64,000 nucleotides of DNA from an uncultured Mycoplasmatota bacterium (GCA_946488855.1 CAMLWC010000001.1:2688-66687), one strand, 5' to 3'; counted from the stretch's first letter, positions 14,041 through 51,776 are shown. Numbers and translations are program-made. Notes: generated from the letters alone by a model not told the origin.

Positions 14041-14065
14041 AAGCAATTTTTTGCTTTTTTTTTTT
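14041..14065 (+). terminator. rho-independent terminator
   Basis: AAGCAA-TTTT-TTGCTT hairpin followed by T9. Confidence 0.6.
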
Positions 14066-14161
14066 GATAAAATTTAAATTTAAATAAAGCATTTATAAAA
14101 ATGAAGCAAATACTTTAATTAAATAAGATATTTATTTTTTTCATATACTTTTACTTTACGC

Positions 14162-14189
14162 TTGACATTTGACAATAATGTGATAAAAT
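14162..14189 (+). promoter_or_regulatory. sigma-A type promoter (TTGACA-16-TGaTAAAAT, extended -10)
   Basis: Tandem TTGACATTTGACAA, then TGATAAAAT, then an AGGAGGG RBS 8 nt before the ATG at 14211. Confidence 0.6.
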
Positions 14190-14210
14190 TATTGTAGGAG
14201 GGTTAAGAGA

Positions 14211-14981: not shown

Positions 14982-15001
14982 AATTTTTTATTTATAGGGG
15001 T

Positions 15002-15406: not shown

Positions 15407-15477
15407 AATGTCTAAGTTAGATATTATTTTTTAATATCAATAGAAATGATTGAAATGTATTTTGAATATTAGTTGTA

Positions 15478-15505
15478 TTGACAATTAAATGAAATATGAT
15501 ATAAT
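15478..15505 (+). promoter_or_regulatory. near-consensus sigma-A promoter (TTGACA-16-TGaTATAAT)
   Basis: Exact TTGACA, extended -10 TGATATAAT, and an AGGAGAGG RBS before the ATG at 15536. Confidence 0.65.
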
Positions 15506-15535
15506 GTTTATTGTACATAGGAGAGGAAAAGATAT

Positions 15536-16102
15536 ATGAATAAATTGATAAATGAAGATTATTTTAAAAATATGGAACAAAAACTTGCTATTGAAAAAAT
15601 AACAGTAGAGAATTTTAAAGAGTATTATTTACGTTTAAAATTAGCTATAATTAATGGTAAATTAGAAAATCAATTGAGTTATGTTACTTCTTTAATGGGG
15701 GCTTTTATTTTCCCTGTTGAGTCAGCTGATGAAAGAGAAATAGTTGGATTAATGCTTAGTGATTTAGATAGTATAGCTACAACATTAGCACAAGAACAAA
15801 TTACAAGTATTAATTTAACTGAATATTATTCTAATTTTAAAAGTGTTTCAAGTAAACAAGCCGTTTCAAGTAAACAATTGATTGATTTTTATAATTTTTT
15901 TATGATAGCTTTTTTTGCAAAAACATCTGATGTTGATTTAGAGGAATGGCATAAATTATTGTCATCAACTAGATTAGAAAGTTGTAATTATGATGAAGTT
16001 GAAGAAGTATTTTTCTTAAGAAAGAAAATTAAAAATTTATTACGTCAAATTAAAAGAAATGATGAAATAAAGAAACCTTATATTAAAAATATAAGCAAAT
16101 AG
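15536..16102 (+). CDS. hypothetical protein
   Basis: Strong promoter and RBS. Contains an in-frame 18-bp tandem duplication (SVSSKQAVSSKQ). No recognisable domain. Confidence 0.55.
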   Translation: MNKLINEDYFKNMEQKLAIEKITVENFKEYYLRLKLAIINGKLENQLSYVTSLMGAFIFPVESADEREIVGLMLSDLDSIATTLAQEQITSINLTEYYSNFKSVSSKQAVSSKQLIDFYNFFMIAFFAKTSDVDLEEWHKLLSSTRLESCNYDEVEEVFFLRKKIKNLLRQIKRNDEIKKPYIKNISK

Positions 16103-16183
16103 TGTTAATCAAAGAGGAAAATTATATGATTGGTGATTAATATTATTTTGTCAAATTTAATGTAAAAAAATATATAAATTATA

Positions 16184-16211
16184 AAAGAATATTGAATATA
16201 TTCTTTTTTTT
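16184..16211 (+). terminator. rho-independent terminator
   Basis: AAGAATAT-TGAA-TATATTCTT hairpin followed by T8. Confidence 0.55.
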
Positions 16212-16271
16212 GATATACTAGGAAATAGTATTATTTAAAAAGACATATTATTAAGTAGTTGGAGGTATTGT

Positions 16272-17633
16272 ATGAAAAGGCATTTAAATAGAAGAGGAAA
16301 AATATTAGTTTTAAGTATGAGTTTAATCATTTTAATAAGTGGTATATTTGTAATAAAAGGATTAAATCAAAAGGAAGAGTTACATATATTAGAAAGTACA
16401 GATAATTATGATTTGAAAATTGATTATCCTAATATAGAAAATAAAAAAATAAAACAAAAAGTAGATGAATATGTAAAAAAACAAAAAGATGCTTTTCTTA
16501 ATAATGTTAAAGAAGTAGAAGATATTGAACAGCCTAAATATGATTTTAATTTGAGCGTTAATGTAAATGATTATAAAGATATTACTCATGTTTATATGTT
16601 AACATTTGCCTATACTGGAGGAGCACATTATACTAGAGATGACACAAGCTTATATTATGACAGCAAAACTAAAGAATTTGTGGATTTAAAATACTTCTTT
16701 AAAGATGAAGAATCATTTAAAAAACTATCTAGTATCGCTTATTATTATGTTTTAAAATTAGAAGATAAAAAATTTGATGAATTATGGGTTAAAAAAGGAA
16801 CTGATCCAACTATTGATAATTATAGACATTTTAATTTTAAAGATGAAGGATTAGAATTATTATTCCCACCTTATCAAGTAGCTTCATGGGCTGATGGAGA
16901 AATAAAAATTACTATACCTTATGAAGAAATAAATGATTTATTAAAAGAGGAATATAGAAATAAAAGTAAAGAAGAAGAAGTTGTAAGTATTATCCCTGAA
17001 GTAAGAGATTTAACTAAATATCAAGATAAAAAATTAATTGCTTTTACTTTTGATGATGGTCCTAGTGAAACTAATACTAATTATTTATTAGATAATTTAG
17101 ACAAGTATGATGCTAAAGTTACTTTCTTTGTTTTAGGTAGTAGGGTAAATAGTAATAAAGAAACAATTAAAAGAGCTTATTTAGAAGGTAATGATATTGG
17201 AAGTCATACATATAATCATAGAAATTTAAATTTATTAAGTGATGTTGCTTTAATGGATGAAGTTAAAAAAACAAATGATGCTATTAAAGGTGTAATTGGT
17301 AAAAGTCCAACTTTATTAAGACCTCCTTATGGTAATTTAACTGATCATGGAAAAGAACTAGCTAATATGAATATTGTTTTGTGGAATATTGATCCATTAG
17401 ATTGGAAATATAAAGATAAAAATAGAGTAGCTAATGAAATAATAGAACATGCTCATGATGGTGCTATTGTATTAGTTCATGATATATATAAATCATCAGT
17501 AGAAGGAGCTTTACTTGCTATGGAAGAATTACAAAAACAAGGTTATGCTTTTGTAACAATTAATGAAATGGCGCAATTAAGAGGTATTAAATTAGATACA
17601 ACAACATCATATTTTAGTATGAAAAAACAGTAA
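16272..17633 (+). CDS. polysaccharide deacetylase (NodB domain) with N-terminal anchor and DUF3298/DUF4163-like region (PdaC-like)
   Basis: N-terminal TM segment. C-terminal NodB motifs FTFDDGP, HTYNH and LRPPYG. Confidence 0.75.
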   Translation: MKRHLNRRGKILVLSMSLIILISGIFVIKGLNQKEELHILESTDNYDLKIDYPNIENKKIKQKVDEYVKKQKDAFLNNVKEVEDIEQPKYDFNLSVNVNDYKDITHVYMLTFAYTGGAHYTRDDTSLYYDSKTKEFVDLKYFFKDEESFKKLSSIAYYYVLKLEDKKFDELWVKKGTDPTIDNYRHFNFKDEGLELLFPPYQVASWADGEIKITIPYEEINDLLKEEYRNKSKEEEVVSIIPEVRDLTKYQDKKLIAFTFDDGPSETNTNYLLDNLDKYDAKVTFFVLGSRVNSNKETIKRAYLEGNDIGSHTYNHRNLNLLSDVALMDEVKKTNDAIKGVIGKSPTLLRPPYGNLTDHGKELANMNIVLWNIDPLDWKYKDKNRVANEIIEHAHDGAIVLVHDIYKSSVEGALLAMEELQKQGYAFVTINEMAQLRGIKLDTTTSYFSMKKQ

Positions 17634-17649
17634 AATTTTACTGTTTTTT
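17623..17649. terminator. bidirectional rho-independent terminator between convergent genes
   Basis: Palindrome AACAGTAAAA/TTTTACTGTT flanked by A6 on one side and T6 on the other. Confidence 0.6.
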
Positions 17650-19014
17650 GTATGTTATATCATAACAACTTGGTCCCATAATACAATTACCATCAATATC
17701 AAATCTTGAGCCATGACAAGGGCAATCCCAGGTTAATTCTACATCATTAAATAATAAATTGCACTTTAAGTGCGGACATTTATTATATACTATATGTTTT
17801 TTATTATCTTTATCAATATAAATACCTACATTATCATTATTAATTTTAGTAAATATGACATTTTTAGAATTCCATTTTTTATTAGGTATTAATTTATTTT
17901 CGATGAGTGTTTTAGAAACTGATAATAAATTATTAATATTATTTATTTTAAATATTAAGTTTCTTTTAGGAGAAAATAATTCATACTCTTTATCGTATAA
18001 AACGATATCACTTAATATTTTGCCTGCTATTGTACCATTAGTCATCCCCCATGTATTATAACCGGTTCCAATTAATAAATTATCTTTTAATTTTCCTATA
18101 ATAGGTAAATGATCTGCAGTCATAATATCATGATTAGACCAAATATATTCTATATCACCATAAATACTGGCTTCTTTAATTAAATCATTAAAATTTATAT
18201 TTTCATTATACTTATTAGTGATTTTATGTGATCCATTTAAATAAATTAAATTGTTATTATAGTATCGCATTGATATTGTTGGTATTTTAGATGTTATTGA
18301 AGATATTTTTTTGTTTTTAACATTTTTAACACTACACAAATAAGATCTTTCTAAATAACAATGAATTGGAGTTAATAATGGAAATAAGAAAAAAGGGTAG
18401 TGACAAGCTAATATGATTTTTTTAGCTTTTATTTTATATTTATCAGTATAAACTAAATCATGTATTTTAATAACATTTGTTTTTTCATATATTTCAATAT
18501 TATTTTTTAATAATATTTCTTTTAAATTTAATAAATATTTAATTGGATGAAATACATAAGTGTCTTTAACTGAAATAGAATTTTTATTAATATTTACTTT
18601 AATATTAAATGATTCTAATATTTCTTTTTCTTTTATTAAACTATCTTTATTTTTATCATAAACAAATGATTCTACTTGTTCTAAATCACAATCAATATTT
18701 TCTTTTTCTATTATATCTTTAATAATATTAATAGCTTGCAATTGATATTTTAAATATGGTAGTGCCTTATCTTTTAATTTTGTATATATTAATTCTTGCA
18801 AATAGGTTATTTTAGCAGTCGATTTTGATGTAACTCCGCATCCTATTTGATTTTTTTCTACTATAATCACTTTTAAATTTTTATTTATTAGCTGATAGGC
18901 TGTAGTTAAACCTGTTATCCCACCACCAATTATTAAAACATCGCATTCTATATCTTTATCTAATTTATTTACTTTATTTTGATAATCTTTTATCCAAATA
19001 CTTTGTTTTTTCAT
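17638..19014 (-). CDS. FAD-dependent oxidoreductase fused to a C-terminal Rieske [2Fe-2S] domain
   Basis: VLIIGGGITGLTTAY dinucleotide fold. C-terminal CPHLKC...CPCHGSRF Rieske motif. Start placed at MKKQSIW behind a GGTGATAGG RBS. Confidence 0.7.
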   Translation of the reverse strand: MKKQSIWIKDYQNKVNKLDKDIECDVLIIGGGITGLTTAYQLINKNLKVIIVEKNQIGCGVTSKSTAKITYLQELIYTKLKDKALPYLKYQLQAINIIKDIIEKENIDCDLEQVESFVYDKNKDSLIKEKEILESFNIKVNINKNSISVKDTYVFHPIKYLLNLKEILLKNNIEIYEKTNVIKIHDLVYTDKYKIKAKKIILACHYPFFLFPLLTPIHCYLERSYLCSVKNVKNKKISSITSKIPTISMRYYNNNLIYLNGSHKITNKYNENINFNDLIKEASIYGDIEYIWSNHDIMTADHLPIIGKLKDNLLIGTGYNTWGMTNGTIAGKILSDIVLYDKEYELFSPKRNLIFKINNINNLLSVSKTLIENKLIPNKKWNSKNVIFTKINNDNVGIYIDKDNKKHIVYNKCPHLKCNLLFNDVELTWDCPCHGSRFDIDGNCIMGPSCYDITYKKQ

Positions 19015-19051
19015 CCTATCACCAATATTAATATGCACAAAAAAAGCAAGA

Positions 19052-20260
19052 TTAATCATCTTGCAATTTATTTAATTTATCATAAACATTTTTTAATGCA
19101 GTTTCATATTTACTTGTTGTTTTAGGAATATAATATTTCCTATTTTTAATTTTATCTGGTAAGTATTGTTGTTTAACAAAAGCGTTAGGATAATCGTGAG
19201 GATATTTATAATCTTTTGAATTTGTTTTAATATGATTAGGAACATTACCAGTATTACCATTTCTAATATCCAATAAAGCATTATCTAAGGCAACATGAGC
19301 CGAATTAGATTTAGGAGATAAAGCTAACTCAACTACAACTGTAGCGAGTGGTATTCTTGCTTCAGGTAATCCTAATCGTTCACAAGCATTAATGCAAGCA
19401 TCTACTTTAGGCCCCATTGAAGGGTTAGCAAGTCCAATATCTTCATAAGCAATAACTGTCATTCGTCTATAAATGCTATCTAAATCTTCAGCTTCAATTA
19501 ATCTAGCTAGATAATGTAGACTAGCGTTAACATCACTACCTCTAATTGACTTTTGAAAAGCGGATAATACATCATAATGGCCATCTTCGTTTTTATCATG
19601 AAAGAATACAGGTTTACTATTTATTTTTTTAATATGTTCAACGTTCACTATTTTATCACTACTAGAATAATAAGATACTTCTAATAAATTATAAGCAAAT
19701 CTTAAATCTCCTCCAGATAATTTAACAATATAATTAATTGTTTCATCATCAATTTGAATATCTTCTAAATATTTAACACCTTTTTTTAAAGCTTCTTTAA
19801 TATCTTCATCGTTTAATTCTTTTAATTCAAATATTTGACATCTACTTCTAATTGCTGGATTTATTTTATGATATGGATTAGATGTAGTCATACCTATTAA
19901 GGTAATTAAACCATTTTCTAAATATGGTAATAATAAATCTTGTTTATCTTTATTTAATCTATGAATTTCATCCATAATGATAATATATTCATTATTATAT
20001 TTAGCTTCTTCTATAGCATCATCAAAATCTTTTTTATTATTTATAACAGCATTTAATAAAATATATTTATAGCCTAATTCATTTACAATAGCAGTAGCAA
20101 TACTAGTTTTGCCAATACCAGGTTTACCATATAAAATCATTGAAAATAACTTTTTATTTTTAACTAAATTAGTTAGTATTTTATCTTTACCAATCAAATG
20201 TTTTTGACCAACTATATCATCTAATTTAGTAGGTCTTAAAATATGTGCTAAAGGTTCCAT
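19052..20260 (-). CDS. rarA: replication-associated recombination protein A (AAA+ ATPase)
   Basis: Walker A GKPGIGKTSIA, Walker B IIMDEIHR and the MgsA C-terminal region. Start placed at MEPLAHILRP behind GGTGATTTAT. Confidence 0.85.
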   Translation of the reverse strand: MEPLAHILRPTKLDDIVGQKHLIGKDKILTNLVKNKKLFSMILYGKPGIGKTSIATAIVNELGYKYILLNAVINNKKDFDDAIEEAKYNNEYIIIMDEIHRLNKDKQDLLLPYLENGLITLIGMTTSNPYHKINPAIRSRCQIFELKELNDEDIKEALKKGVKYLEDIQIDDETINYIVKLSGGDLRFAYNLLEVSYYSSSDKIVNVEHIKKINSKPVFFHDKNEDGHYDVLSAFQKSIRGSDVNASLHYLARLIEAEDLDSIYRRMTVIAYEDIGLANPSMGPKVDACINACERLGLPEARIPLATVVVELALSPKSNSAHVALDNALLDIRNGNTGNVPNHIKTNSKDYKYPHDYPNAFVKQQYLPDKIKNRKYYIPKTTSKYETALKNVYDKLNKLQDD

Positions 20261-22349: not shown

Positions 22350-23093
22350 GTGATATCGATGAATAACATATCATTTGCTTTTATTTTGACTATTGTATCG
22401 GGATTGTCAACAATGATTGGATCAATATTTATATTTAAGAAAAAAAATGAAAATATAATTATAGCATCTTTAGCATTTGCTTCAGGAGTAATGTTTACAG
22501 TATCACTTACTGATCTAATTCCAGAATCATATAATTTATTAATTAATATTTTCCCTAAATTTCCCTCCTTTATTTATATGTTAATATTTGTTGTAAGTGG
22601 TATTTTGTTTTCTATGTTTATTGATAAATATATCCCAACCGATAATAATTTGTATAGAGTAGGAGTTTTTGCGATGTTAGCTATAATAATTCATAACATA
22701 CCTGAAGGTATTGCTACTTTCATGGCTACTAACACTAATATTGTGTTAGGTATTTCTTTAACTATAGCCATAGCGTTACATAATATACCAGAAGGTATTA
22801 GTATATCAATACCAATTTATTATGCTACTAACAGTAAATTTAAAGCTATTTTTTATACATTTATATCTGCTGTATCAGAACCTTTTGGAGCTTTATTAAC
22901 TTATCTTTTTTTAAGTAATTATATTAACGATAGAATTATGGGATTCTTATTTGGCGTTATAGCAGGTATTATGATTCATATTTCAATGTACGAATTGTTA
23001 CCAACTTCTAAAAGTTATAATAAATTAAATATAACATATTTGTTTTTTCTTTTAGGAGCAATATTGATGATAATAAATCATTTTGTTTTTTAA
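22350..23093 (+). CDS. zupT: ZIP-family zinc transporter
   Basis: Eight TM segments and the paired HNIPEGIA motifs. Confidence 0.8.
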   Translation: MISMNNISFAFILTIVSGLSTMIGSIFIFKKKNENIIIASLAFASGVMFTVSLTDLIPESYNLLINIFPKFPSFIYMLIFVVSGILFSMFIDKYIPTDNNLYRVGVFAMLAIIIHNIPEGIATFMATNTNIVLGISLTIAIALHNIPEGISISIPIYYATNSKFKAIFYTFISAVSEPFGALLTYLFLSNYINDRIMGFLFGVIAGIMIHISMYELLPTSKSYNKLNITYLFFLLGAILMIINHFVF

Positions 23094-23131
23094 ATTAATA
23101 TGCTATAATATTGCCTAATGGGGGAAATTAT

Positions 23132-24379
23132 ATGAAACTAATTAGGGAAATGAATCTAAAAGAAGTTTATTCAGAGTTATTATTAGATAAAAAGTACGAT
23201 TTAAAACTGATATATAAAGACTTTAATATTAGTGAATTATATGATAGAGCAAGAGAATTATATAAAACTGAAACAGGTAATGAAAATATTTCAGATAAAG
23301 AATTAGAAAAATGGTTGCATGATAAATGTTGTTATGAAGTTTTAAGTGATTTATTATGGTTAATGGTTACAAAATTAAAAGATAGTGATAATTATAAAGA
23401 TGAATTTATGTTCTATAATTTTCATGTAATAATGGATATGATGAATGAATTTCTTATTGATTGTCAAGTAGATGAACAATATGATATTAAAAATTTAACA
23501 AGTTTAACTGAAGACGAAATAAATAGATATATTTGTGAAATATTAAAAGAAATTGATCCTTCTATAGAATGGTTAAATATATATTTAAAAGCAAAAAAAG
23601 AAGGTAAAATAATAAATATTAATAATTATTCGAAAGAAGAGTTAGAAAAATTAAGAGTCAAATTAAAATTAGATAAAATTCCAAGTGGTAGTAATTGTGT
23701 TGTTATAGATGATGAAACTTATTATTTGTTTCTTACACTTAATAGCACACTATACGATATTATTAGTACAATTCACGAATTAATCCATTTCATTATCACA
23801 GATAATAATATTTATTTACCGCCAATTTTATCAGAGTTTTTTTCTATTTTTTATGAAATATATGCTGTATCTTATTTACATAAACAAGGTTTTGATATTA
23901 ACGAATTGTTTACCATCTATCAAAAAATTAGAATTATTGACTTATCCCTTATTTCTTTAACTCTCACACCATTATATAATTATTTAAAAGTTTTAGCAGA
24001 ACGAAGAAAAATATCTTTAGATGATGATATAAAGTACTACGTAGAAAGATTAAAATCTTTAAAAAGAATTAATAAGCTTCCCATTAAATATAGTAAAATA
24101 CAACCAATTGATTTAGCTTTTGAAAAATGTGATAAATATATAGAATTTTTATTAGATGATGAATTTTATAATTTATATCCATATGTTGTTGGTAGTGGTT
24201 TAGCTTTTGAAGCAATGAAAAAATATGATAAAAATTTATTGAATAAAATAAGAGGTTTTGTTAATCCAACAAGCTGTGTTGATCCATATGAAGTTTTTAG
24301 TATATGTGGTTTTATAGAAGAAGATTTAATAAGAGTAGGGGAAGGACTAAAAGAATTTCAAAAAGAAAAAAGACCTTAA
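23132..24379 (+). CDS. hypothetical HExxH protein (putative zincin-like metallopeptidase)
   Basis: TIHELIHFI HExxH with a downstream Glu. Start placed at MKLIREM behind GGGGGAAATTAT. Confidence 0.45.
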   Translation: MKLIREMNLKEVYSELLLDKKYDLKLIYKDFNISELYDRARELYKTETGNENISDKELEKWLHDKCCYEVLSDLLWLMVTKLKDSDNYKDEFMFYNFHVIMDMMNEFLIDCQVDEQYDIKNLTSLTEDEINRYICEILKEIDPSIEWLNIYLKAKKEGKIININNYSKEELEKLRVKLKLDKIPSGSNCVVIDDETYYLFLTLNSTLYDIISTIHELIHFIITDNNIYLPPILSEFFSIFYEIYAVSYLHKQGFDINELFTIYQKIRIIDLSLISLTLTPLYNYLKVLAERRKISLDDDIKYYVERLKSLKRINKLPIKYSKIQPIDLAFEKCDKYIEFLLDDEFYNLYPYVVGSGLAFEAMKKYDKNLLNKIRGFVNPTSCVDPYEVFSICGFIEEDLIRVGEGLKEFQKEKRP

Positions 24380-41835: not shown

Positions 41836-43226
41836 TAAATCACCTCGTATATTGTACCTTCTCTGGTATCTTTTATTTTAATATTTTTACTTTCTAATTC
41901 TTTTCTTATATTATCAGCTTTTTCATAATCTTTATTTTCTTTAGCTAATTTTCTTTCTTCAATTTTTTCATTAATATATTTTATTAATTCTTCATCTAAT
42001 TCTTTTTCATTATCTAACAAATTTAATGATAAAACTTTATCGAAATCATTAATTATTTCTAACTTAGTATTACCATTTACATCTTCTTTTAAAACATCAT
42101 ATAAACAAGTTAACATTAAAGATGTATTTAAATCATTACTAATTGCTTCTTTAAATTTTTCTTGATATTTTTTAACAATATCATTGTCAACATTTCCTTC
42201 TTCTTTAATATTTTTTATTTTATTTAATAATTTATTATATGTATTAGTTGCTTTATCCAAAGCTTCATAACTAAATACTAATTGATTTCGATAATGAGAT
42301 TGTAAGCAAAAAAATCTATAAGCTAAAGGATTATAACCTTTACTTTCTAATAAAGAAACAGTTAAAAATTCACCTTTACTTTTACTCATTTTTCCAGTAG
42401 CATCATTTAAATGTTCACCATGTAACCAATAATTACACCATTTATGCCCTAAATAAGCTTCTGATTGCGCTATTTCATTAGTATGGTGAGGAAATATATT
42501 ATCAACACCACCACAGTGAATATCTAAATGTTCACCTAAATAATTAATTGAAATTCCAGAACATTCTATATGCCAGCCTGGATATCCAACTCCCCATGGA
42601 CTATCCCATTTCATAGCTTGATTTTCAAACTTACTAATTGTAAACCACAAACCAAAATCACAAGGATTTTTTTTGTGAACATCTTCGGTAACATCTTCTC
42701 TTGCACCTATTATTAATTCATCAGGATTTTTACCAGATAATTTATAATAATCTTTTGCTTTAGAAATATCAAAATAAACATTACCATTAGATATATATGC
42801 ATATCCATTTTCTAATAATTTTTTAATCATTTTTATATACATATCAATATGGTCTGATGCTTTTTCAACTATTTTAGGTTTTCTAATATTAAGTTTTTTA
42901 GAATCTTCAAAAAATGCTTTTGTGTAGAAATCAGCTATTTCATAAACAGTTTTATTTTCTCTAATAGCTCCTTTAATCATTTTATCTTCGCCTGTATCTG
43001 CATCACTAGACATATGACCAACATCAGTTATATTCATACATCTTTTTACATTATAACCAACATATTCTAAACCTTTTTCTAATATATCTTCAAATATATA
43101 TGTTCTTAAATTTCCTATATGAGCATAATGATAAACTGTTGGTCCACATGTATATAAAGTAACTAAATCCTTATTATATGGTTTAAATTCTTCTATTTCC
43201 TTATTTAATGTATTATATAATTTCAT
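41835..43226 (-). CDS. cysS: cysteine--tRNA ligase
   Basis: HIGNLRTY (HIGH) and KMSKS motifs plus a Zn-binding Cys. Confidence 0.95.
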   Translation of the reverse strand: MKLYNTLNKEIEEFKPYNKDLVTLYTCGPTVYHYAHIGNLRTYIFEDILEKGLEYVGYNVKRCMNITDVGHMSSDADTGEDKMIKGAIRENKTVYEIADFYTKAFFEDSKKLNIRKPKIVEKASDHIDMYIKMIKKLLENGYAYISNGNVYFDISKAKDYYKLSGKNPDELIIGAREDVTEDVHKKNPCDFGLWFTISKFENQAMKWDSPWGVGYPGWHIECSGISINYLGEHLDIHCGGVDNIFPHHTNEIAQSEAYLGHKWCNYWLHGEHLNDATGKMSKSKGEFLTVSLLESKGYNPLAYRFFCLQSHYRNQLVFSYEALDKATNTYNKLLNKIKNIKEEGNVDNDIVKKYQEKFKEAISNDLNTSLMLTCLYDVLKEDVNGNTKLEIINDFDKVLSLNLLDNEKELDEELIKYINEKIEERKLAKENKDYEKADNIRKELESKNIKIKDTREGTIYEVI

Positions 43227-43284
43227 AATTAATCACCTATTTATATTATATCATAATGTACTATAAATTAAAACAAAAAACGCA

Positions 43285-44520
43285 TTATTGCGTTTTTGTT
43301 AAAGTTTTTTCAGCTTCCATTTCAGAAGTATCTTCTAAACATTTTAATGATTCATGATTTATTATAGATCCTAAATATTTAGACCCATTAACAACAGCAT
43401 CAGTTCCATCAGTTCCGTATGATAAAGTTTTTATATCAACTTTATTTTCAGCTGTAATGTATTCACTATCAGCATATACAACTGAGAACATTGGCCAATA
43501 TTGTTCAGACAATAATCCACCACCTGATGTTAAAGAATAATTAGAATATTCTGTTCCATTTGTTACTATATCATTTCTACCAGTATAGAATTCAGTAACA
43601 TATTTAAATGATTCTTGAAATTCTTCACTAGTCATTTCTTTATTTTTTAATCCATTTGCTAAATCAACAAATTCAGTATTTAATTCTTCTAAAATTGTTT
43701 TATCTTCTGAATCATAAGCTAAAGGTGCTAAAGAGATATATTGTCCTTCTTCTTGTCCTAAAGCAACATTATTGTTATGTGTACCTACTGCTGAAGTATA
43801 ATTATACATATTTTGAATTTCTTCTATCATATTTAAATCTGTATTAGCATATAACGTTTTAATATCTTCTTGATCTAAATAATCAATATTAGTTATAAAT
43901 AAAGCAGATTTAATAAATATTGGATCAATATTCAATCCTTTTGATTGGTTATCAGCTAAAATTTCTTGTGCCTTTTGTTCAATATTTTCAGCTGTTAATA
44001 ATTTATTTTCTTGTTCTATATTAGAATCGATAGTATCATCTTCATCGACAACAGAAGTTTCCATAGGTACATTATTATTTAAAGCTTTTCCAATTTTATA
44101 TCCTGCTACTAAAGAAGCTATAATTAAGCCACCAACAATTAATTTGTATTTATGTTTACCTAATACTTCTTTTGCTTTTGGATATACATTTAATTTGCTT
44201 TTGTTGCTTTTGGTAGTTTGTTTAATATTTGATTCAGAAACTTTATTTACATCATGTTTTTTATCTTCATATTCAAACGTATCGACATCTTCAAATAATT
44301 TTCTATCATATTTTTTTCTTTTTGAAACATTGCTTAAAGTTTCATAAGCTTTTCTTGCCTTTAAAAAATATTCTGCTTTTTCATCACTTAAATCAGAAAC
44401 TTTCTCTGGATTATAGTATTCATCAATTTGTTTGAATGAATCTTCAATCTCTTGTTGACTAGCTGAATCACTAACCCCTAAAATTTCATAATAATTCTTT
44501 TTTTCTTTAAATAAATTCAT
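43285..44520 (-). CDS. J-domain (DnaJ N-terminal domain) membrane protein with large extracytoplasmic domain
   Basis: YYEILGVSDSASQQEIEDSFKQ J-domain start, though the catalytic HPD tripeptide is not evident. One TM segment at about residue 130, followed by an acidic domain. Confidence 0.6.
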   Translation of the reverse strand: MNLFKEKKNYYEILGVSDSASQQEIEDSFKQIDEYYNPEKVSDLSDEKAEYFLKARKAYETLSNVSKRKKYDRKLFEDVDTFEYEDKKHDVNKVSESNIKQTTKSNKSKLNVYPKAKEVLGKHKYKLIVGGLIIASLVAGYKIGKALNNNVPMETSVVDEDDTIDSNIEQENKLLTAENIEQKAQEILADNQSKGLNIDPIFIKSALFITNIDYLDQEDIKTLYANTDLNMIEEIQNMYNYTSAVGTHNNNVALGQEEGQYISLAPLAYDSEDKTILEELNTEFVDLANGLKNKEMTSEEFQESFKYVTEFYTGRNDIVTNGTEYSNYSLTSGGGLLSEQYWPMFSVVYADSEYITAENKVDIKTLSYGTDGTDAVVNGSKYLGSIINHESLKCLEDTSEMEAEKTLTKTQ

Positions 44521-44599
44521 AATAAATTCCCCCTTCTTTTTTCATGATTAAACTATCATAAAATATAAATTTGTACTATTTCTTCAGTTGTTGCCATAT

Positions 44600-44627
44600 A
44601 TTATAACATATTTTTTTATTTTGTCAA
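44600..44627 (-). promoter_or_regulatory. consensus sigma-A promoter (TTGACA-16-TGtTATAAT), copy A of a duplicated cassette
   Basis: Minus-strand read: TTGACAaaataaaaaaatatgtTATAAT. The RBS AAGAAGGGGGAATTTAT is identical to that of copy B. Confidence 0.65.
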
Positions 44628-44662
44628 ATTAATAAATTTTTTAATTTTTTTATAAAAACATC

Positions 44663-44691
44663 TTGCATAAAACAATTAAATGTGTTATTAT
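44663..44691 (+). promoter_or_regulatory. tRNA promoter (TTGCAT-17-TGtTATTAT)
   Basis: The -35 and -10 hexamers and spacing were read directly from the sequence. Position is 20 nt upstream of the first tRNA. Confidence 0.5.
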
Positions 44692-44710
44692 GTAGAAGTA
44701 TTAGTTACAT

Positions 44711-44787
44711 GGACCCTTAGCTCAGTTGGTTAGAGCATCCGGCTCATAACCGGGCGGTCGTAGGTTCGAGTCCTACAGGGTCCACCA
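44711..44787 (+). tRNA. tRNA with CAU anticodon (elongator-type; likely tRNA-Ile2/lysidine or tRNA-Met), CCA encoded
   Basis: Cloverleaf GGACCCT/AGGGTCC acceptor, CTCATAA anticodon loop and a TTCGAGT T-loop. G1:C72 and the absence of three GC pairs in the anticodon stem argue against initiator tRNA. Confidence 0.85.
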
Positions 44788-44793
44788 TATAAT

Positions 44794-44878
44794 GCGGATG
44801 TGGCGAAATTGGCAGACGCACTAGACTTAGGATCTAGCGCCTTATGGCATGGGGGTTCAAGTCCCTTCATCCGCACCA
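44794..44878 (+). tRNA. tRNA-Leu (anticodon UAG), CCA encoded
   Basis: GCGGATG/CATCCGC acceptor, anticodon loop CTTAGGA and a long variable arm (class II). Confidence 0.85.
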
Positions 44879-44893
44879 GTAAGCTTAAAATAT

Positions 44894-44914
44894 CAACCAT
44901 AATGGTTGTTTTTT
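44894..44914 (+). terminator. rho-independent terminator after tRNA pair
   Basis: CAACC-ATAAT-GGTTG hairpin followed by T6. Confidence 0.5.
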
Positions 44915-44957
44915 CATATTTAATACTACATCAATAAATGCTAAGGAGGAATAAAAA

Positions 44958-45803
44958 ATGAATTTTATTGATTTAAATGAACAACATAACAAAATAAGAA
45001 CTAAAAAAGAATTAATTGAAATGCTAAAAATATATAAAGGAATATTAAATAAATCAATGATTAGCTATTTAACATCATTAATAAATTTAGAATTTTCAGT
45101 TATAAGAGATTATATTGAAGATAACGAAAGAATCGCTTTATCAGAATTAGAAATATATAAAAATGCAGCAATATATAATATTTGCAAGAGAACTATAAAT
45201 ATTGTTAAGCAAAAAGATTTAAAACTTTCCATAAATAATTATAATGATGGTTCAGGATTTTTAACTATATATGGATTAATTGGGAAAAAAAGCATTCAAT
45301 TATTTGATTTTAATTATAGAGAAGGTCCTATCGGTTTTGAAACTACAATTCCTAGAGGATATAAAACTATGAATATTGGAGAAATATCACTATATCAAAC
45401 GTTAGAAAATGAAGAATTAAGAAATGTTGAATTATTAAAAATAATGGGAAAATTAGAAAAATTGTATGATCAAAAAAATCCATATACATCTCGTCAAGAA
45501 GTTTGTGGTGGACCTAATTCAATTTGGGATTTTGAACGTTTTAAAAAAATTCAAGAATACGAAAGAAGGTTTAACCAATTAGATAGTAAAAAAGGACTAG
45601 ATGATGATGATAAAAAAGAAATAGAAATGACAAAAATAGTTTATGATGCATTATTAGAAGATTATGGATTAACTAATGAAAGTTTTAGTGAAGAAAAACA
45701 ATCTTTAACTTTATTATCTCGTGAATATAGTACAGAATTACAAAAAAAATTAGTAAAAAAGATGCCAAATATAAAAATTGAAAATAATATTAAATATATT
45801 TGA
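44958..45803 (+). CDS. hypothetical protein
   Basis: 281 aa with a GGAGG RBS and no recognisable motif. Confidence 0.5.
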   Translation: MNFIDLNEQHNKIRTKKELIEMLKIYKGILNKSMISYLTSLINLEFSVIRDYIEDNERIALSELEIYKNAAIYNICKRTINIVKQKDLKLSINNYNDGSGFLTIYGLIGKKSIQLFDFNYREGPIGFETTIPRGYKTMNIGEISLYQTLENEELRNVELLKIMGKLEKLYDQKNPYTSRQEVCGGPNSIWDFERFKKIQEYERRFNQLDSKKGLDDDDKKEIEMTKIVYDALLEDYGLTNESFSEEKQSLTLLSREYSTELQKKLVKKMPNIKIENNIKYI

Positions 45804-45898
45804 TTTTATAAAACAATGATATAAATTATTATTTCATTAAAAAATATTTTCAACCATTTAGGTTGTTTTTTTATAATAAAAAATCCTTATTTAAGGAT

Positions 45899-46318
45899 TT
45901 ATTTTTGTAACATTTTTAATAAGTTTATTTTAAACATATCTTTTTCTTGATTTTCTTTAGATACCATAACGCCTTTATAAGTTGTTAGTTCTGATTGATG
46001 TCCTTCTCCTAATATTCCTTCAGGAGTTATTTTATCTAACATTACAATTTTTTCATTAAAATATACAGTATAATGTAGTTTAATATCACCATGAACTTTA
46101 GAAAACATAGTATCAGTTGGTAATTTTAATTCATAATTTTTAGAATTATTTTGATCATTTGTACTTATAATTTCACCTAAAAAATTACCTTCTTTAAATG
46201 ATGGATAAAATGAAAAATATAATTTTTTATAAGCCAACATATTATATTTTTTTAAGGATCTTTCATACTTTCTAAATTCATTTTCGTTTACATATTCAAA
46301 TAAGTAACTATCTTTCAT
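45899..46318 (-). CDS. hypothetical protein
   Basis: 139 aa with a GGAGG RBS (revcomp of cctccgat) and no recognisable motif. Confidence 0.45.
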   Translation of the reverse strand: MKDSYLFEYVNENEFRKYERSLKKYNMLAYKKLYFSFYPSFKEGNFLGEIISTNDQNNSKNYELKLPTDTMFSKVHGDIKLHYTVYFNEKIVMLDKITPEGILGEGHQSELTTYKGVMVSKENQEKDMFKINLLKMLQK

Positions 46319-46398
46319 ATATCCACCTCCGATTCTCTCCTATTCTTTATTCATTTTAACATAATAATATGCAAAAGTCAAACATAAAAAGAAGAAGT

Positions 46399-47850
46399 TT
46401 ACACTTCTCTTTTTCTACCAGTTAATTCGTAACCTAAACTTAATAAATTTTGATCATTTTTGCTAGTACTCCATTTATAATAAGTACCTGCAACTGTCAA
46501 TTGTTTACGAGTTCTATATCTATAATAAGTTATATCCTTATAAACTGGAATTTTTCTTGTTTTTTCAACTTTTTTAGTAACTTCAACTGGTACTGTAGTT
46601 GTTACATCTTTATATACTGGAACATCTTCATAAACAGTAACAGTTTTAACACAATTTGAACCACTTAATTTATAACTGCTACCATATGTTGAACAAGATA
46701 ATGTTCCTGAACCACTTGTTACATATTTATAACATTTTGTATTAGCACCACTACCTTCTTTTGTATATCCAGTTGGACATGAATAAGTAGTTGTTCCTGC
46801 ATTATATTTTCTAGTATATTTTTTATATGTATAAGTAGTAACATTTTGACATACATTTGTACAATCAACTGTAGTTTTATGACTTACATATTCATATTTT
46901 ACAGTATTACTTGAAGATAAAGCGTATTTAGATGTTGTATAGCCTTGATATACCCAACTTCCATAACTTCCTGATGTAGTATTTTTAATTGCATTAGTGT
47001 ATTGTTTTTTACTTGTACTTCCACCAGTAGCAGGTTTAGTATCAATTACTTTTGTACCAACCGGTTTAGAAGTAGTACCAACTTGAACTTTAGTAGTTTG
47101 TTCACGATATTCGATAGTTGTTTCATAATCATAATAAGTTTCGGTTTTATATCCTGTTAACTCATTACGTTTATCAATTTCAACTTGTCTTAATGTATCC
47201 GCTGTAACTTTAGTTGTAGACCAATTAGACCATGGGCCCCAATTAGAATAAGTATTTTTTGTAACTAATTTATATTCATATTCATATTTCTTATTAACAA
47301 CAGGTGTTTCTGGTTCAGATGGTGTTACTGGTTTTGAAGGTGTTGTAGTTTCAGGCTTTTCTTCACATATTGCACCATCACAATAATCATAACATCCCAT
47401 ATAAACTATGATGTAGTCAGAGTAATCTGAACAAGTTAATTGAACTTTCATTTGATATTCATCACTCATTTTAGTAACTTGAACATAAGATTTGTTAATA
47501 TCACATGATTGATTATTACTATCTTTAAATGGAATAACTAATTTCTTTTCTTCCATTTCTTCTAATGTTATAGTAACGGAATCACCTATTTTTTTAGGTA
47601 ATCTTTCATTTGTAAAATATCCTTGTGCTGCATCACGCATACTTTCAACATTATCAGTAAATAATCTACCATATAATGGTTGCAATTGCATAGCAATTTC
47701 ACTTGTTAATTCTTCTTTTCCAACAAAATTTTCTTTTAAATAATTTTTAGTAGGAAATAACCAAATCATTACAAAAACAAATAAAACTACTAACATTAAT
47801 TGTAAAATAACGTCTTTGAATGAAAAATCATTTCTTCTTTCTTCGTACAT
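46399..47850 (-). CDS. membrane-anchored Thr/Tyr/Ser-rich, Cys-rich surface protein
   Basis: N-terminal signal-anchor VILQLMLVVLFVFVMIWLF. More than 20 Cys, a NWGPWSNWS Trp ladder, and repeated VPVYKDV / IPVYKDI segments. Confidence 0.6.
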   Translation of the reverse strand: MYEERRNDFSFKDVILQLMLVVLFVFVMIWLFPTKNYLKENFVGKEELTSEIAMQLQPLYGRLFTDNVESMRDAAQGYFTNERLPKKIGDSVTITLEEMEEKKLVIPFKDSNNQSCDINKSYVQVTKMSDEYQMKVQLTCSDYSDYIIVYMGCYDYCDGAICEEKPETTTPSKPVTPSEPETPVVNKKYEYEYKLVTKNTYSNWGPWSNWSTTKVTADTLRQVEIDKRNELTGYKTETYYDYETTIEYREQTTKVQVGTTSKPVGTKVIDTKPATGGSTSKKQYTNAIKNTTSGSYGSWVYQGYTTSKYALSSSNTVKYEYVSHKTTVDCTNVCQNVTTYTYKKYTRKYNAGTTTYSCPTGYTKEGSGANTKCYKYVTSGSGTLSCSTYGSSYKLSGSNCVKTVTVYEDVPVYKDVTTTVPVEVTKKVEKTRKIPVYKDITYYRYRTRKQLTVAGTYYKWSTSKNDQNLLSLGYELTGRKREV

Positions 47851-47930
47851 ATAAATTCCCCCTTCTTTTTATGGCTCATATATTACCATAAACTTATATT
47901 TTTGTCAATATTATCTCCGTTGTTGCCATT

Positions 47931-47958
47931 ATTATAGCATATTTTTTTATTTTGTCAA
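47931..47958 (-). promoter_or_regulatory. consensus sigma-A promoter (TTGACA-16-TGcTATAAT), copy B of duplicated cassette
   Basis: Minus-strand read: TTGACAaaataaaaaaatatgcTATAAT. The same RBS as copy A follows about 75 nt downstream. Confidence 0.65.
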
Positions 47959-48219
47959 ATTAATATTAACTATGGTACATCCTACATTAAACGGATGAAT
48001 TTTATATTCTAAAACATTCTTATTATTAGATAATACAATTTTAGTAGTTTCCTTTAATATTCCAGTTCCTATTCCATGAATTATAACGATAAATTTATTC
48101 TTCATTTTGATATTATCATTAATAAAATCATTAATCGCAACTCGTGCTGTTTCTCTATCAAAACCATGTAAATCTAAAGATGGTAAATTATCTATAAATA
48201 TTATATCATTTAAATTCAT
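47947..48219 (-). CDS. Smr-domain protein
   Basis: LDLHGFDRETARVAI...IIHGIGTGILK matches the Smr motif pattern. Length 90 aa. Confidence 0.7.
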   Translation of the reverse strand: MNLNDIIFIDNLPSLDLHGFDRETARVAINDFINDNIKMKNKFIVIIHGIGTGILKETTKIVLSNNKNVLEYKIHPFNVGCTIVNINLTK

Positions 48220-49093
48220 TATATACTGCTTCCATCTCTTCTTTTAAAGGAATTGAATTTCTAGTTCCTATTCTACTTACCGATATAGCCCCAGCATAAT
48301 TAGCCAATTGAAGAGCAAATTTTGGATCATATCCATTAGCTAAATAATATGTTAAAGCTCCATGAAATATGTCGCCTGCTCCTGTAGAATCAACTGATTT
48401 TAATCTGATAGATTTAATAATTTCATAATTATATAAACAGCCTTTATCTTCTAATGTTACCACAATTTCATTATTAAATATTTGTTTTAATTTTGAATAA
48501 ACATTTTTTAAAGTTTCAAAATTATTGTAGTCAATTTCCATATTAGTTACTTTTTCAGCAAATTCTTTTGAACATGCAACCCATTTAACCATTTTACATA
48601 ACTCAATTACTTCATTAGTGTCTCTTCCGGCATCAATTATACTTAAAGCAGCTGGATATTTATTTAAAATATCTTTGCTCATTTCATATTCCTGACCATC
48701 AATTAATATGACATCTGGAATAAAATTCAATTCAAATTTATTCATTTCTACTTTTTTAGGTTTATAAGCAAAAGTAGTTCTTGAACCATTCTGTTTATTA
48801 GCTAAAACAAAACTAGATGTTGTTTCGTGTCCTTCTCTTAATTCTAAGTAATCAGTATTTACATTTACTTTAGCAAATTCTTCTTTTATTTTATGACCAT
48901 AAAAATCATTTCCTACTATACCAGCAAAGTATACATCACTACCCCAACTTCCTAATAAATAAGCAGCTGTACTAGCAGGACCACCTCCACACTCAATTCT
49001 TTCTTGAACTCTATTTTTAGTATTTTCAACAGGATATTCTTCTAAAGGGAGTGTAACATCATAAGTAGCATGTCCTAAACATAATATTTTCAT
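48206..49093 (-). CDS. PfkB-family carbohydrate kinase (ribokinase-like)
   Basis: N-terminal GG motif (CGGGPAS) and the C-terminal DSTGAGDIFHGAL anion-hole motif. Confidence 0.8.
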   Translation of the reverse strand: MKILCLGHATYDVTLPLEEYPVENTKNRVQERIECGGGPASTAAYLLGSWGSDVYFAGIVGNDFYGHKIKEEFAKVNVNTDYLELREGHETTSSFVLANKQNGSRTTFAYKPKKVEMNKFELNFIPDVILIDGQEYEMSKDILNKYPAALSIIDAGRDTNEVIELCKMVKWVACSKEFAEKVTNMEIDYNNFETLKNVYSKLKQIFNNEIVVTLEDKGCLYNYEIIKSIRLKSVDSTGAGDIFHGALTYYLANGYDPKFALQLANYAGAISVSRIGTRNSIPLKEEMEAVYNEFK

Positions 49094-49151
49094 TTATATC
49101 ACCTATATTAATTTTAGCATTTTTTTTATTTAAAAACAAGAAAAAAGACAA

Positions 49152-51776
49152 TTAAATTGTCTCTTTTACAACTGCTTGAGCAGCAGCAAGTCTAGCAATA
49201 GGCACTCTAAATGGAGAACAAGACACATAATTTAGTCCTACTCTATGACAAAATTCAACACTTGATGGATCGCCACCATGCTCACCACAAATACCTAAAC
49301 TTATGTCTGGTCTAGTGGATTTTCCTTTTCTTACAGCCATTTCAACTAATTGTCCAACACCAGTTTGATCTAGTTTAGCAAATGGGTCATTTTCAAATAT
49401 TTTTTTATCATAGTAATCATTTAAGAATTTACCAGCATCATCTCTTGAAAAACCATAAGTCATTTGTGTTAAATCATTAGTTCCAAAACTAAAGAATTCA
49501 GCTTGTTTAGCTATTTCATCAGCAGTTAAAGCAGCTCTTGGTATTTCAATCATTGTACCAATTTCATATTTCATTGTAACTTTATTTTCTTTTAAAATTT
49601 TATCTGCTGTTTCAACTACTATTTTTTTAACATATTCTAATTCTTTAACATCTCCAACTAATGGTATCATTATTTCAGGAGTTACATTCATTCCTTTTTT
49701 ATTTACATTGATTGCAGCTTCTATTACAGCTCTAGTTTGCATTTTAGCTATTTCAGGGTAAGTGATTGCTAATCTACAACCACGATGTCCCATCATTGGA
49801 TTAAATTCTTTTAAAGCATCTATTCTATTTTGAATAATTTCTAAACTAACATTTAAACTTTTAGCTAATGGTTCCATTTCTTCTTTTGTATGTGGCAAGA
49901 ATTCATGTAATGGTGGATCTAGATATCTAATAACTACTGGATCACCTTCCATAGCTTCAAATAATTTTTCAAAGTCATCTCTTTGATAAGGTAAAATTTT
50001 ATCTAAAGCTTCTTCTCTTTGTTCTAAAGTATCAGCTAAAATCATTCTTCTAAAATTAAAGATTCTATCAGTTTCAAAGAACATGTGTTCTGTACGACAT
50101 AAACCAATTCCTTCAGCACCAAATTTTCTAGCTTGAGTAGCATCTTTTGGTGTATCAGCGTTAGCTCTAACTTTTAATTTTCTAGTTTCATCAGCCCATT
50201 TCATAAATGTTTCAAAATCGCCACTGATACTAGCTTCAACAGTTTTTACTTTTTCACCATATACATTTCCAGTTGAACCATCAATTGATAAATAATCTCC
50301 TTCTTTAAATACTAAACCATCTTTAGTTTTTAAAGTTTTCTTTTCTTCATCAATTATTAATTCACCGCAACCAGATACGCAACATCTACCCATACCACGA
50401 GCAACAACTGCAGCATGTGAAGTCATACCACCTCTAATAGTTAAAATACCATTAGCATCATTCATACCTTGAATATCTTCAGGTGATGTTTCTAATCTTA
50501 CTAATAAAGTATCTTCACCTCTTTTTTTTGCTTCACTTACATCACTTGCAGTAAAATAAATCTTACCAGCACCGGCTCCAGGTGAAGCAGCTAATCCTTT
50601 AGCTATTACTTTGGCATTTTTTAAAGATTCATTGTCAAACATAGGATGTAATAATTGATCTAGTTGTTTAGGTTCAACTTTTAATAATGCTTCTTTAGGA
50701 GTAATCATACCTTCATTTACTAAATCAACAGCAACTTTTAAAGCAGCATGAGCAGTTCTTTTTCCATTTCTTGTTTGTAACATAAACAATTTACCATTTT
50801 CAATTGTGAATTCCATATCTTGCATATCTTTATAGTGATTTTCTAATGTTTTAGCTATTTCACTAAATTGTTTATAAACATCTGGCATAACATCTTTTAA
50901 AGTAGAAATAGGTTGAGGTGTTCTAATACCTGCAACAACATCTTCTCCTTGCGCATTAATTAAATATTCGCCATATAATTTATTTTCTCCGGTTGCAGGA
51001 TTTCTTGTAAATGCAACACCAGTACCTGATTTATCACCACTATTACCATAAACCATTTCTTGAACATTAACAGCAGTACCCCAACTACCAGGAATATCAT
51101 TCATTCTTCTATAAATAATAGCTCTTTCATTATTCCAAGATCTAAATACAGCAGTAACTGCTTCAATCAATTGAACTTTTGGATCTTGTGGAAATTCTTC
51201 ACCAGCTAATTTTTTATAAATTTTTTTAAATTTATTAGTAATTTCTTTCATATCATCAGCATTTAAATCTGTATCATATGAAACACCTTTTTTTTCTTTA
51301 AATTCATCTAAAACTCTTTCAAAACTTGATTTTGGATATCCTTTTACAACATCAGCAAACATTTGAATAAATCTTCTATATGAATCATAAACAAATCTAG
51401 GATTATTTATTTTTTCACTAAAATTTTTAGCCACTTCATCATTTAAACCTAAATTTAATACGGTATCCATCATACCAGGCATACTAGCTCTAGCACCACT
51501 TCTTACTGATACTAATAATGGATTATTTAAATCGCCCATTTTTTTACCAGAAGTTTTTTCCAAATTAGCTAATTTGGCCATAATTTGATCAATTACTTCA
51601 TCAGCTATTTTTTCTCCATCATCATAATATTTATTACATGCTTCTGTTGTAACAGTAAATCCATCAGGTACAGGTAAACCAATACTTTTCATTTCTGCTA
51701 AGTTAGCACCTTTACCACCTAATAGATTTCTCATATCTTTGTTTCCTTCACTAAATGAATAAACATATTGTGTCAT
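49152..51776 (-). CDS. ppdK: pyruvate, phosphate dikinase
   Basis: About 875 aa with a PEP-utilising domain, phospho-His domain GGMTSHAAVVARGMG and a C-terminal TIM barrel. Start placed at MTQYVYSF behind GAGGAGGG. Confidence 0.95.
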   Translation of the reverse strand: MTQYVYSFSEGNKDMRNLLGGKGANLAEMKSIGLPVPDGFTVTTEACNKYYDDGEKIADEVIDQIMAKLANLEKTSGKKMGDLNNPLLVSVRSGARASMPGMMDTVLNLGLNDEVAKNFSEKINNPRFVYDSYRRFIQMFADVVKGYPKSSFERVLDEFKEKKGVSYDTDLNADDMKEITNKFKKIYKKLAGEEFPQDPKVQLIEAVTAVFRSWNNERAIIYRRMNDIPGSWGTAVNVQEMVYGNSGDKSGTGVAFTRNPATGENKLYGEYLINAQGEDVVAGIRTPQPISTLKDVMPDVYKQFSEIAKTLENHYKDMQDMEFTIENGKLFMLQTRNGKRTAHAALKVAVDLVNEGMITPKEALLKVEPKQLDQLLHPMFDNESLKNAKVIAKGLAASPGAGAGKIYFTASDVSEAKKRGEDTLLVRLETSPEDIQGMNDANGILTIRGGMTSHAAVVARGMGRCCVSGCGELIIDEEKKTLKTKDGLVFKEGDYLSIDGSTGNVYGEKVKTVEASISGDFETFMKWADETRKLKVRANADTPKDATQARKFGAEGIGLCRTEHMFFETDRIFNFRRMILADTLEQREEALDKILPYQRDDFEKLFEAMEGDPVVIRYLDPPLHEFLPHTKEEMEPLAKSLNVSLEIIQNRIDALKEFNPMMGHRGCRLAITYPEIAKMQTRAVIEAAINVNKKGMNVTPEIMIPLVGDVKELEYVKKIVVETADKILKENKVTMKYEIGTMIEIPRAALTADEIAKQAEFFSFGTNDLTQMTYGFSRDDAGKFLNDYYDKKIFENDPFAKLDQTGVGQLVEMAVRKGKSTRPDISLGICGEHGGDPSSVEFCHRVGLNYVSCSPFRVPIARLAAAQAVVKETI

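Follow-up and report, generated by a model that had tools for sequence, protein, structure and literature searches.

The window analysed here is a stretch of 64,000 nucleotides from an uncultured Mycoplasmatota bacterium, with a G+C content of 23.7%, and all coordinates are positions within it. Read along minus-strand transcription, the locus of interest comprises the genes for PPDK, a pfkB-family kinase and a stand-alone 90-aa Smr-domain protein (47947..48219, minus strand), followed by a noncoding cassette (copy B) with gene B and then by a 139-aa gene. Next come, all three on the other strand, a 281-aa gene, tRNA-Leu and tRNA-Met, and then a second cassette (copy A) with gene A, downstream of which lie cysS, a Zn peptidase gene and truB.

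Gene B (46399..47850, minus strand) encodes a protein of 483 aa with an N-terminal TM helix and an extracytoplasmic, beta-rich region rich in Cys, Thr and Tyr. Its product had no sequence match in Pfam, NCBIfam, PHROG or PDB, and its AF2 model (pLDDT 77), made up of the TM helix, a small alpha/beta domain and very long beta-hairpins, had no significant fold match in PDB. The 411-aa product of gene A (43285..44520, minus strand) has a J domain at its N terminus, and it also contains a TM segment and an extracytoplasmic domain that is conserved. The J domain is dispensable, since the A proteins of four related loci (L016, L030, L048 and L019) have a lipoprotein-type signal (…LSASGC…) instead and that of L041 has a bare TM segment in its place, with the extracytoplasmic domain and the cassette retained. 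Both A and B are membrane- or lipid-anchored extracytoplasmic proteins. A duplication of one gene together with its promoter was rejected as an origin of the arrangement when comparison of the two proteins revealed no homology. In NCBIfam and PHROG scans of the genes of the segment, the only matches were to the J and Smr domains.

The 139-aa gene downstream of B (45899-46318, minus strand) has no family match. Its product, for which there are more than 5000 database homologues, is 74 to 98% identical across species whose B proteins are 37 to 90% identical. Its AF2 model (pLDDT 87) came nearest to the RelE/HigB/YoeB toxins, with a probability of up to 1.0 but E values of only 0.01 to 0.1, and no antitoxin-like partner of this RelE-fold gene was evident. 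The 80-nt spacer between gene B and the 139-aa gene (46319-46405, minus strand) is conserved in both length and sequence. It contains a weak terminator over the stop codon of gene B (GAAGT..ACTTC and a T-run), a promoter (TTGACT-17-TGTTAAAAT) and an SD, which makes the 139-aa gene a transcription unit of its own, with a different promoter.

The tRNA-Met(CAT) and tRNA-Leu(TAG) genes (44711..44878, plus strand) are divergent from cassette A. They have an apparent divergent promoter of their own, TTGCAT-17-TGtTATTAT (44628-44710, plus strand), which lies back to back with that cassette, the −35 box of which is only about 30 nt away. Elsewhere in the window, a 415-aa ORF (23132-24379, plus strand) with no Pfam match is preceded by a short leader resembling that of P2 (the second promoter of the cassette, described below), TGCTATAATATTGCCTAATGGGGGAAATTATATG, at 23090-23134. 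This ORF also has one of the three G5 Shine-Dalgarno sites found among the 64 window ORFs of at least 100 aa.

Structure of the two cassette copies

Copy B (47848..47967, minus strand) consists of a promoter (P1), a leader, a second promoter (P2), a predicted hairpin, an SD block and the start codon of gene B, and it scored 71 to 76 bits against an nhmmer model of the cassette. P1 (47931..47958, minus strand) matches the consensus at 12 of 12 positions and has the TG of an extended −10 element. Its −35 box, TTGACA (47958-47953), and its −10 box, TATAAT (47936-47931), are both perfect, and the 16-nt spacer between them is A-rich and carries a TATG −16 motif, ending in TATGc. Downstream lies GGCAACAACG (47927-47918), and the start of the P1 leader (47915..47927, minus strand) reads GGCAACAAC followed by an SD-like GGAG (47918-47915). 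We infer that the P1 start site is located at this leader start.

P2 of copy B (47880..47908, minus strand) is also an extended −10 promoter. It matches the consensus at 10 of 12 positions, again with the TG, and consists of TTGACA (47908-47903), a 17-nt spacer and TGgTAATAT (47888-47880); it is kept in relatives. Overlapping it is a predicted leader hairpin (47868..47892, minus strand; −6.5 kcal/mol, z = −2.9) with an 8-bp stem, the 5′ arm of which is TTTATGGT (47892-47885) and the 3′ arm GCCATAAA (47875-47868). The leader behind the promoters is short and rich in A, and the hairpin sits immediately 5′ of the SD. The SD block, AAGAAGGGGGAATTTAT (47867-47851), contains a run of five G residues (47862-47858) and is a strong SD, set at an optimal spacing of 7 nt from the ATG of gene B (47850-47848), so that the block and the start codon together occupy 47848..47867 on the minus strand.

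Copy A (44518..44640, minus strand) has the same design. Its P1, with TTGACA at 44627-44622 and TATAAT at 44605-44600, likewise matches at 12 of 12 positions with a 16-nt spacer, and it is followed by GGCAACAAC (44595-44587), with no SD-like box after it. The predicted hairpin has a 9-bp stem, TTTTATGAT (44563-44555) pairing with ATCATGAAA (44548-44540), and the same 17-mer SD block as in copy B (44538-44522) precedes the ATG of gene A at 44520. The −35 box of P2 has been lost from this copy. Common to the two copies are TTGACA-16-TGnTATAAT, ATGGCAACAAC and AAGAAGGGGGAATTTAT; the −16 motif reads TATGc or TATGt at P1 of the two copies and TATGg at P2 of copy B.

A repeat finder reported copies A and B as a direct repeat of 36 nt with 97% identity, 3331 nt apart, and the two copies can be aligned across about 120 nt, the similarity running from a few bases upstream of the −35 box to the ATG. 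When up to 3 mismatches were allowed, the 28-nt promoter pattern occurred at two sites in the 64 kb, copies A and B, and in none of 100 shuffled sequences. Copies A and B were also the only promoters in the region to combine a 12/12 match with TG. The two short motifs taken alone are weaker evidence, as at least two matches to them turned up in 8 to 10 of the 100 shuffles. No third gene in the 64-kb window carries the cassette.

The 3′ end of the Smr gene lies within copy B. The stop codon of the Smr ORF (47949-47947) falls inside P1, and its final codons, TTG ACA AAA TAA (47947-47958, minus strand), double as the −35 box and the first bases of the spacer. The same 12-mer is present in copy A, where no ORF runs over it. 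Likewise, copy A carries TTGACAAAATAA, a sequence that in copy B encodes the Smr end, and this fits copying between the two sites.

Much of this had been recognised in an earlier, sequence-only reading of the DNA. The TTGACA-16-TGcTATAAT promoter and the identical RBS that it placed before the ATG at 47850 can be read directly on the minus strand. We likewise found the overlap of copy B with the end of the Smr gene (47947-48219) and, between the copies, the three uncharacterised genes and two tRNAs that it described; they are the genes of 483, 139 and 281 aa, tRNA-Met and tRNA-Leu. That reading had not reported P2 of copy B, the hairpin adjacent to the SD, or the loss of the second −35 box from copy A.

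Terminator-like sites, hairpins with a U-run and SD-sequestering structures were all absent from both copies. An attenuator or terminator in the leader was therefore rejected; in addition, the palindromes seen between the promoters vary, and the stretch that they occupy is missing from copy B of the window. Mini-ORFs of 3 to 7 codons open at the RTG of the P2 TRTG motif, an example in copy B being ATG GTA ATA TAT GAG CCA TAA. A leader peptide was also rejected: these mini-ORFs have no SD, vary in length and are unclosed in the B copy of L029, and we judged them to be a by-product of the −16 motif.

Occurrence and concerted evolution in relatives

Searches for exact protein matches placed the same species in several gut metagenomes obtained independently of one another. 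Contigs of this species that spanned the locus had an identical organisation, with cassettes that gave identical model scores, and several other contigs broke at the tRNA pair, an ordinary assembly break. Homologues of B with 71, 68, 59, 49 and 47% identity led to five further loci (L016 to L020), in each of which the cassette stands before both the A and the B homologue. The relatives with a cassette on both genes number at least 14 genomes, all of them uncultured gut Bacilli/Mycoplasmatota-like MAGs.

In the relatives, P1 is laid out as ATTTGACAAA, an A-rich spacer and TGnTATAATA. It is followed by GCAACAAC and a variable stretch and then by P2, which consists of TTGACAAA, 17 nt and TGGTAGTAT; after this come the stem and AAAAAGAGGGGGAATTTATATG. 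Most relatives have both P1 and P2, at A copies as well as B copies. In L021, where the B protein is 41% identical to that of the window, the cassette has a single promoter, and GCAACAA is still kept after the −10 box; the adjacency of Smr and B is conserved even there.

The gene order (Smr, B, 139-aa gene, tRNA pair, A) is unchanged in other species, which have both cassettes, and the placement of the tRNA-Met/tRNA-Leu pair next to cassette A is also conserved. Among the relatives compared, only the closest one shares the 281-aa gene with the window species. On the 1.13-Mb contig of L016, the 139-aa gene and the tRNA pair are separated by an inserted mobile island (13743-19687), which encodes a serine recombinase (Resolvase/Recombinase domains) as well as a Mob_Pre relaxase. 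L019 has an extra gene for a 194-aa TM protein directly after the tRNA-Leu terminator, and this gene carries a single-promoter version of the cassette (L019:10114-10201). The P1 spacer of this third cassette is identical to that of copy A in L019, which suggests local copying of a promoter. Every one of these differences in gene content between species lies at the tRNA site, with no end at a repeat, and wherever a relative covers the locus, it has both cassette copies.

We then looked at how widely the cassette is distributed. The P1 pattern, ATTTGACAAAWHAWWWAAWNRTGNTATAATA, was scanned against one genome for each of 185,579 species and matched 61 stretches, nearly all of them in gut MAGs labelled "uncultured Bacilli bacterium"; one of the matching genomes is Candidatus Faecisoma merdavium, assigned by NCBI to Mycoplasmatota incertae sedis. 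The genes downstream of these matches were B (18), A (8), that for ribosomal protein L10 with its leader (17) and an assortment of others. P1 alone thus also serves rplJ (L10) in sister species, which indicates that P1 is the clade's form of a strong housekeeping promoter. At the stringency used, genomes with the cassette on A and B had no other match to the P1 pattern. The G-rich SD is found at other genes as well. The complete cassette, searched with nhmmer, gave about 39 matches above 40 bits, all before A or B, in addition to the extra copy in L019. A metagenome scan with the 3′ leader block returned 16 matches in 15 stretches (9 at B, 2 at A and 5 in unrelated chance contexts), and it added B homologues of only 36 to 38% identity that retain the whole two-promoter cassette. 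Neither the genome nor the metagenome scans revealed a third cassette-bearing gene other than that with the single-promoter version in L019.

In a Rfam 15 cmscan of positions 43000-49500 (E ≤ 10), neither cassette had a match; the output consisted of the two tRNAs and three subthreshold matches, of which one lay antisense to tRNA-Met and the others at different places in the region. A plasmid collection contained no match to the cassette. A phage collection gave marginal, partial matches only (E = 2e-3), to bajarodmic viruses 394 and 555 from rodent gut. These two virus records, of 5.5 kb, match the part from P1 to GGAG with 78% identity over 61 nt. The phage matches may merely reflect host-like promoters.

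Compared with the window's copy B, the cassettes are 81 to 96% identical in aligned columns, or 64 to 88% when gaps are counted, while the identity of protein B in the same comparisons falls from 90% to 38%. The noncoding cassette thus outlasts its gene product and is under strong constraint, with stronger purifying selection on it than on the proteins. The GGGG of the SD block and the TG of the −10 element were invariant in 35 distinct cassettes.

Copies A and B evolve in concert. In the 14 genomes with both copies, the mean A-B identity was 0.73 within a genome and 0.65 between genomes (10,000 permutations, p < 1e-4), and the mean orthologous identities were 0.64 for A-A and 0.69 for B-B. 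The excess of within-genome over between-genome A-B identity was largest in the poorly conserved inter-promoter stretch (0.55 versus 0.42), and in a neighbour-joining tree the cassettes of A and B clustered by lineage and not by gene. Homogenisation is incomplete: AAC-G-GAG(G) is the usual reading in B copies, and AAC-T-GAG is that in A copies. The window's copy B has lost the inter-promoter stretch, as have L034, L040 and L054, and the stretch can therefore be regarded as dispensable. P2 is itself an internal copy of P1 that has diverged; in the B copy of L019 the two hardly differ, and in L064 the P1 pattern is matched at two places 91 nt apart.

The most likely cause of the concerted evolution would be gene conversion between the invariant end blocks, the P1 core and AAAAAGAGGGGGAATTTATATG. 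These blocks, of about 19 to 22 nt each, could provide the homology for converting the sequence between them. Selection for the same optimal signals may also contribute to the likeness of A and B.

Minimum-free-energy folding places a hairpin at the corresponding position in most of the 35 distinct cassettes, with a mean z of −1.8 and a median of −2.1 against dinucleotide shuffles; it was predicted in about 26 of them, and about 9 have another fold or only a remnant of 3 to 4 bp. In a MAFFT alignment, 78.5% of cells were paired, compared with 34 to 60% when the partner was slid. One stem pair was GC in 19 sequences, AU in 4, CG in 2 and UA in 1, with 7 double changes; the covariation is modest, but its score was reached by none of 500 shuffles of these related sequences. 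The 5′ arm coincides with the −16/−10 region of P2, so part of its conservation may reflect promoter constraint. Because the sequences are related and the 5′ arm is shared with the TRTG/−10 of P2, we rate the evidence for the hairpin as moderate. The best argument for an RNA role comes from three A copies that have no P2 −35 box and only a degenerate −10, in which a longer stem of 8 to 9 bp is kept and the loop varies freely.

The predicted hairpin can form solely in transcripts that start at P1. An SD-like core 4 nt or more in length lies where the P1 leader begins in 15 of 21 distinct B leaders and in 4 of 14 distinct A leaders. No start codon follows the SD-like GGAG at SD spacing, except for the TTG of the P2 −35 box in short forms.

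Explanations for the shared cassette

Taken together, the comparisons argue that this is a real, functional expression cassette shared throughout the lineage. We consider it probable that it is a conserved expression module for two envelope genes, one that gives them strong and matched expression. P1 and P2, as tandem sigma-A (sigma-70-type) promoters of the Gram-positive extended −10 (TRTG) kind, would transcribe both A and B. Because the same signals start transcription and translation of both genes, we infer that they would be expressed strongly and in a fixed ratio. Transcripts from P1 would carry the hairpin and, in copy B, also the 5′-proximal SD-like GGAG, both of which would be likely to guard the A/U-rich leader against decay; transcripts from P2 would have a leader of only about 20 to 25 nt, fully open for ribosomes. 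A and B are accordingly predicted to be major cell-surface components that are co-expressed. Selection for strength alone does not obviously explain the likeness of A and B within lineages in the inter-promoter stretch and GCAACAAC, the persistent gene-specific G/T difference or the absence of a third gene with the P1 pattern, and protein B shows no recognisable likeness to surface proteins known to be abundant.

These points bear on whether the cassette might instead be the cis-target of a dedicated, co-evolving trans-acting regulator that switches a two-gene regulon. Such a regulator could be a DNA-binding protein acting on the repeated ATTTGACAAA boxes or on the inter-promoter palindromes, or an RNA-binding protein or sRNA acting on the GCAACAAC/GGAG box and the SD-proximal hairpin. 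It would account for the conservation of nonconsensus positions, which co-vary between A and B within lineages, for the failure of the P1 pattern to match any third gene in genomes with both copies, for the fact that even L021, distant and with a single promoter, keeps GCAACAA downstream of the −10 box and for the covariation in the hairpin. AT-rich palindromes are also often seen by eye just upstream of the P2 −35 box, but these differ in sequence and could arise by chance in DNA of 24% GC, and the stretch that holds them is missing from the window's copy B and from L034, L040 and L054. Moreover, neither the window nor the relatives show a candidate regulator gene linked to the locus, the leader has neither an SD-sequestering or terminator structure nor an Rfam match, and gene conversion accounts for the co-variation without a trans factor. 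We therefore regard a dedicated regulator as unlikely. A further proposal, that the leader GCAACAAC/GGAG box and the hairpin, possibly with the ATTTGACAAA boxes, make up the site recognised by a putative clade-specific protein or sRNA, which would co-evolve with them and set the output of a dedicated two-gene envelope regulon, and hence an undescribed cis-regulatory element of the lineage, seems to us quite doubtful. Such an element might act with the flanking genes that resemble mRNA nucleases, Smr upstream and the RelE-fold 139-aa gene downstream.

The sequence-only reading had seen in the two copies a duplicated regulatory cassette bracketing a 3.3-kb segment that could vary by strain. The duplication of promoter and RBS stands and is conserved before the same two genes, whereas the bracketed segment does not hold up as a unit. 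Direct repeats 3331 nt apart with tRNA genes between them could be the product of a 3.3-kb insertion or duplication, or att-like borders of a mobile element beside the tRNA genes, and in L016 the tRNA site is indeed an insertion hot spot, with its serine recombinase and Mob protein. Nevertheless, both copies are found in all relatives covering the locus, each before the same gene; Pfam, NCBIfam and PHROG scans of the genes in the window's segment identified no recombinase, transposase or integrase; plasmid matches are lacking and the phage matches are marginal and partial. Same-species contigs spanning both ends are identical, with no polymorphism, and the indels that do exist between species avoid the repeats. 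The comparison with relatives that the reading had proposed thus bore out a conserved organisation but not the repeats as indel ends, and we hold the copies very improbable as borders of this sort. Nor are the promoters of A and B independent, as the reading had allowed, given that they evolve in concert. It is more improbable again that the similarity has no function, whether as a recent local duplication yet to decay or as a chance likeness of strong promoters. The DNA is AT-rich and in part of low complexity, and the short motifs do recur in 8 to 10% of shuffles; however, the 28-mer recurred in none, and the cassette is kept on both genes where the B proteins are only 36 to 50% identical, making it more conserved than the protein it precedes.

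Related systems and significance

The expression module that we favour has parallels among known systems. They include the Gram-positive sigma-A promoters with an extended −10 (the "−16 region", TRTG) and the tandem P1-P2 promoters of Bacillus subtilis rRNA operons. The cassette resembles these in its TTGACA, its 16- to 17-nt spacers, its TRTG and TATAAT elements and the tandem pairing, as well as in the probable initiation within a G-containing context, ATATGGC/ATATGCC. It differs from the rRNA promoters in driving protein-coding envelope genes.

In Firmicutes, STAB-SD sequences and 5′ stem-loops stabilise mRNA; the STAB-SD of Bacillus thuringiensis cry3A and the 5′ stem-loops of ermC and aprE are said to be examples. 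Most B copies similarly have an SD-like GGAG(G) far from the start codon, about 10 nt away from where the P1 transcript presumably begins, but the box is missing from most A copies. A stem-loop in the leader is shared with ermC and aprE, although in the cassette it adjoins the real SD and not the 5′ end.

Concerted evolution by gene conversion is known in bacteria from rrn operons and from tufA/tufB, where, as here, the paralogous copies within a genome are more alike than orthologues are between lineages. In the cassette, by contrast, the homogenised unit is not a gene or an operon but a noncoding module of about 120 nt on unrelated genes. Concerted evolution between two unrelated genes is the unusual property of the cassette.

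The S-layer (slpA) genes of Lactobacillus offer a further comparison. Two promoters and a stabilising 5′ UTR have been documented for them, and the secondary structure of the 5′ UTR is credited with a long mRNA half-life and very efficient expression (PMC3666127). The likeness lies in the tandem promoters before a single envelope-protein gene and in the hairpin in the leader, the stabilising role of which is here only predicted. The cassette differs from the slpA arrangement in that it serves two nonhomologous genes and evolves in concert, in that its leader is much shorter, with one small hairpin, and in that neither protein A nor protein B has any similarity to S-layer proteins in Pfam, NCBIfam or PDB.

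The cassette shows, in a picture validated by comparison, what a strong promoter and translation start look like in a gut lineage with no cultured member. This lineage has a G+C content of about 24% and genomes that are probably small (one relative is on a 1.13-Mb contig), and it includes MAGs resembling Ca. Faecisoma. The arrangement flags A and B as likely major, co-expressed components of the cell surface, and if a trans factor were involved, the two genes would represent a new small regulon. The cassette is a clean natural example of a noncoding module that is shared by unrelated genes, homogenised, and more conserved than the proteins it would drive. As such, it could be used for studying promoter conversion and co-evolution and, if the clade is ever cultured, as an expression part.
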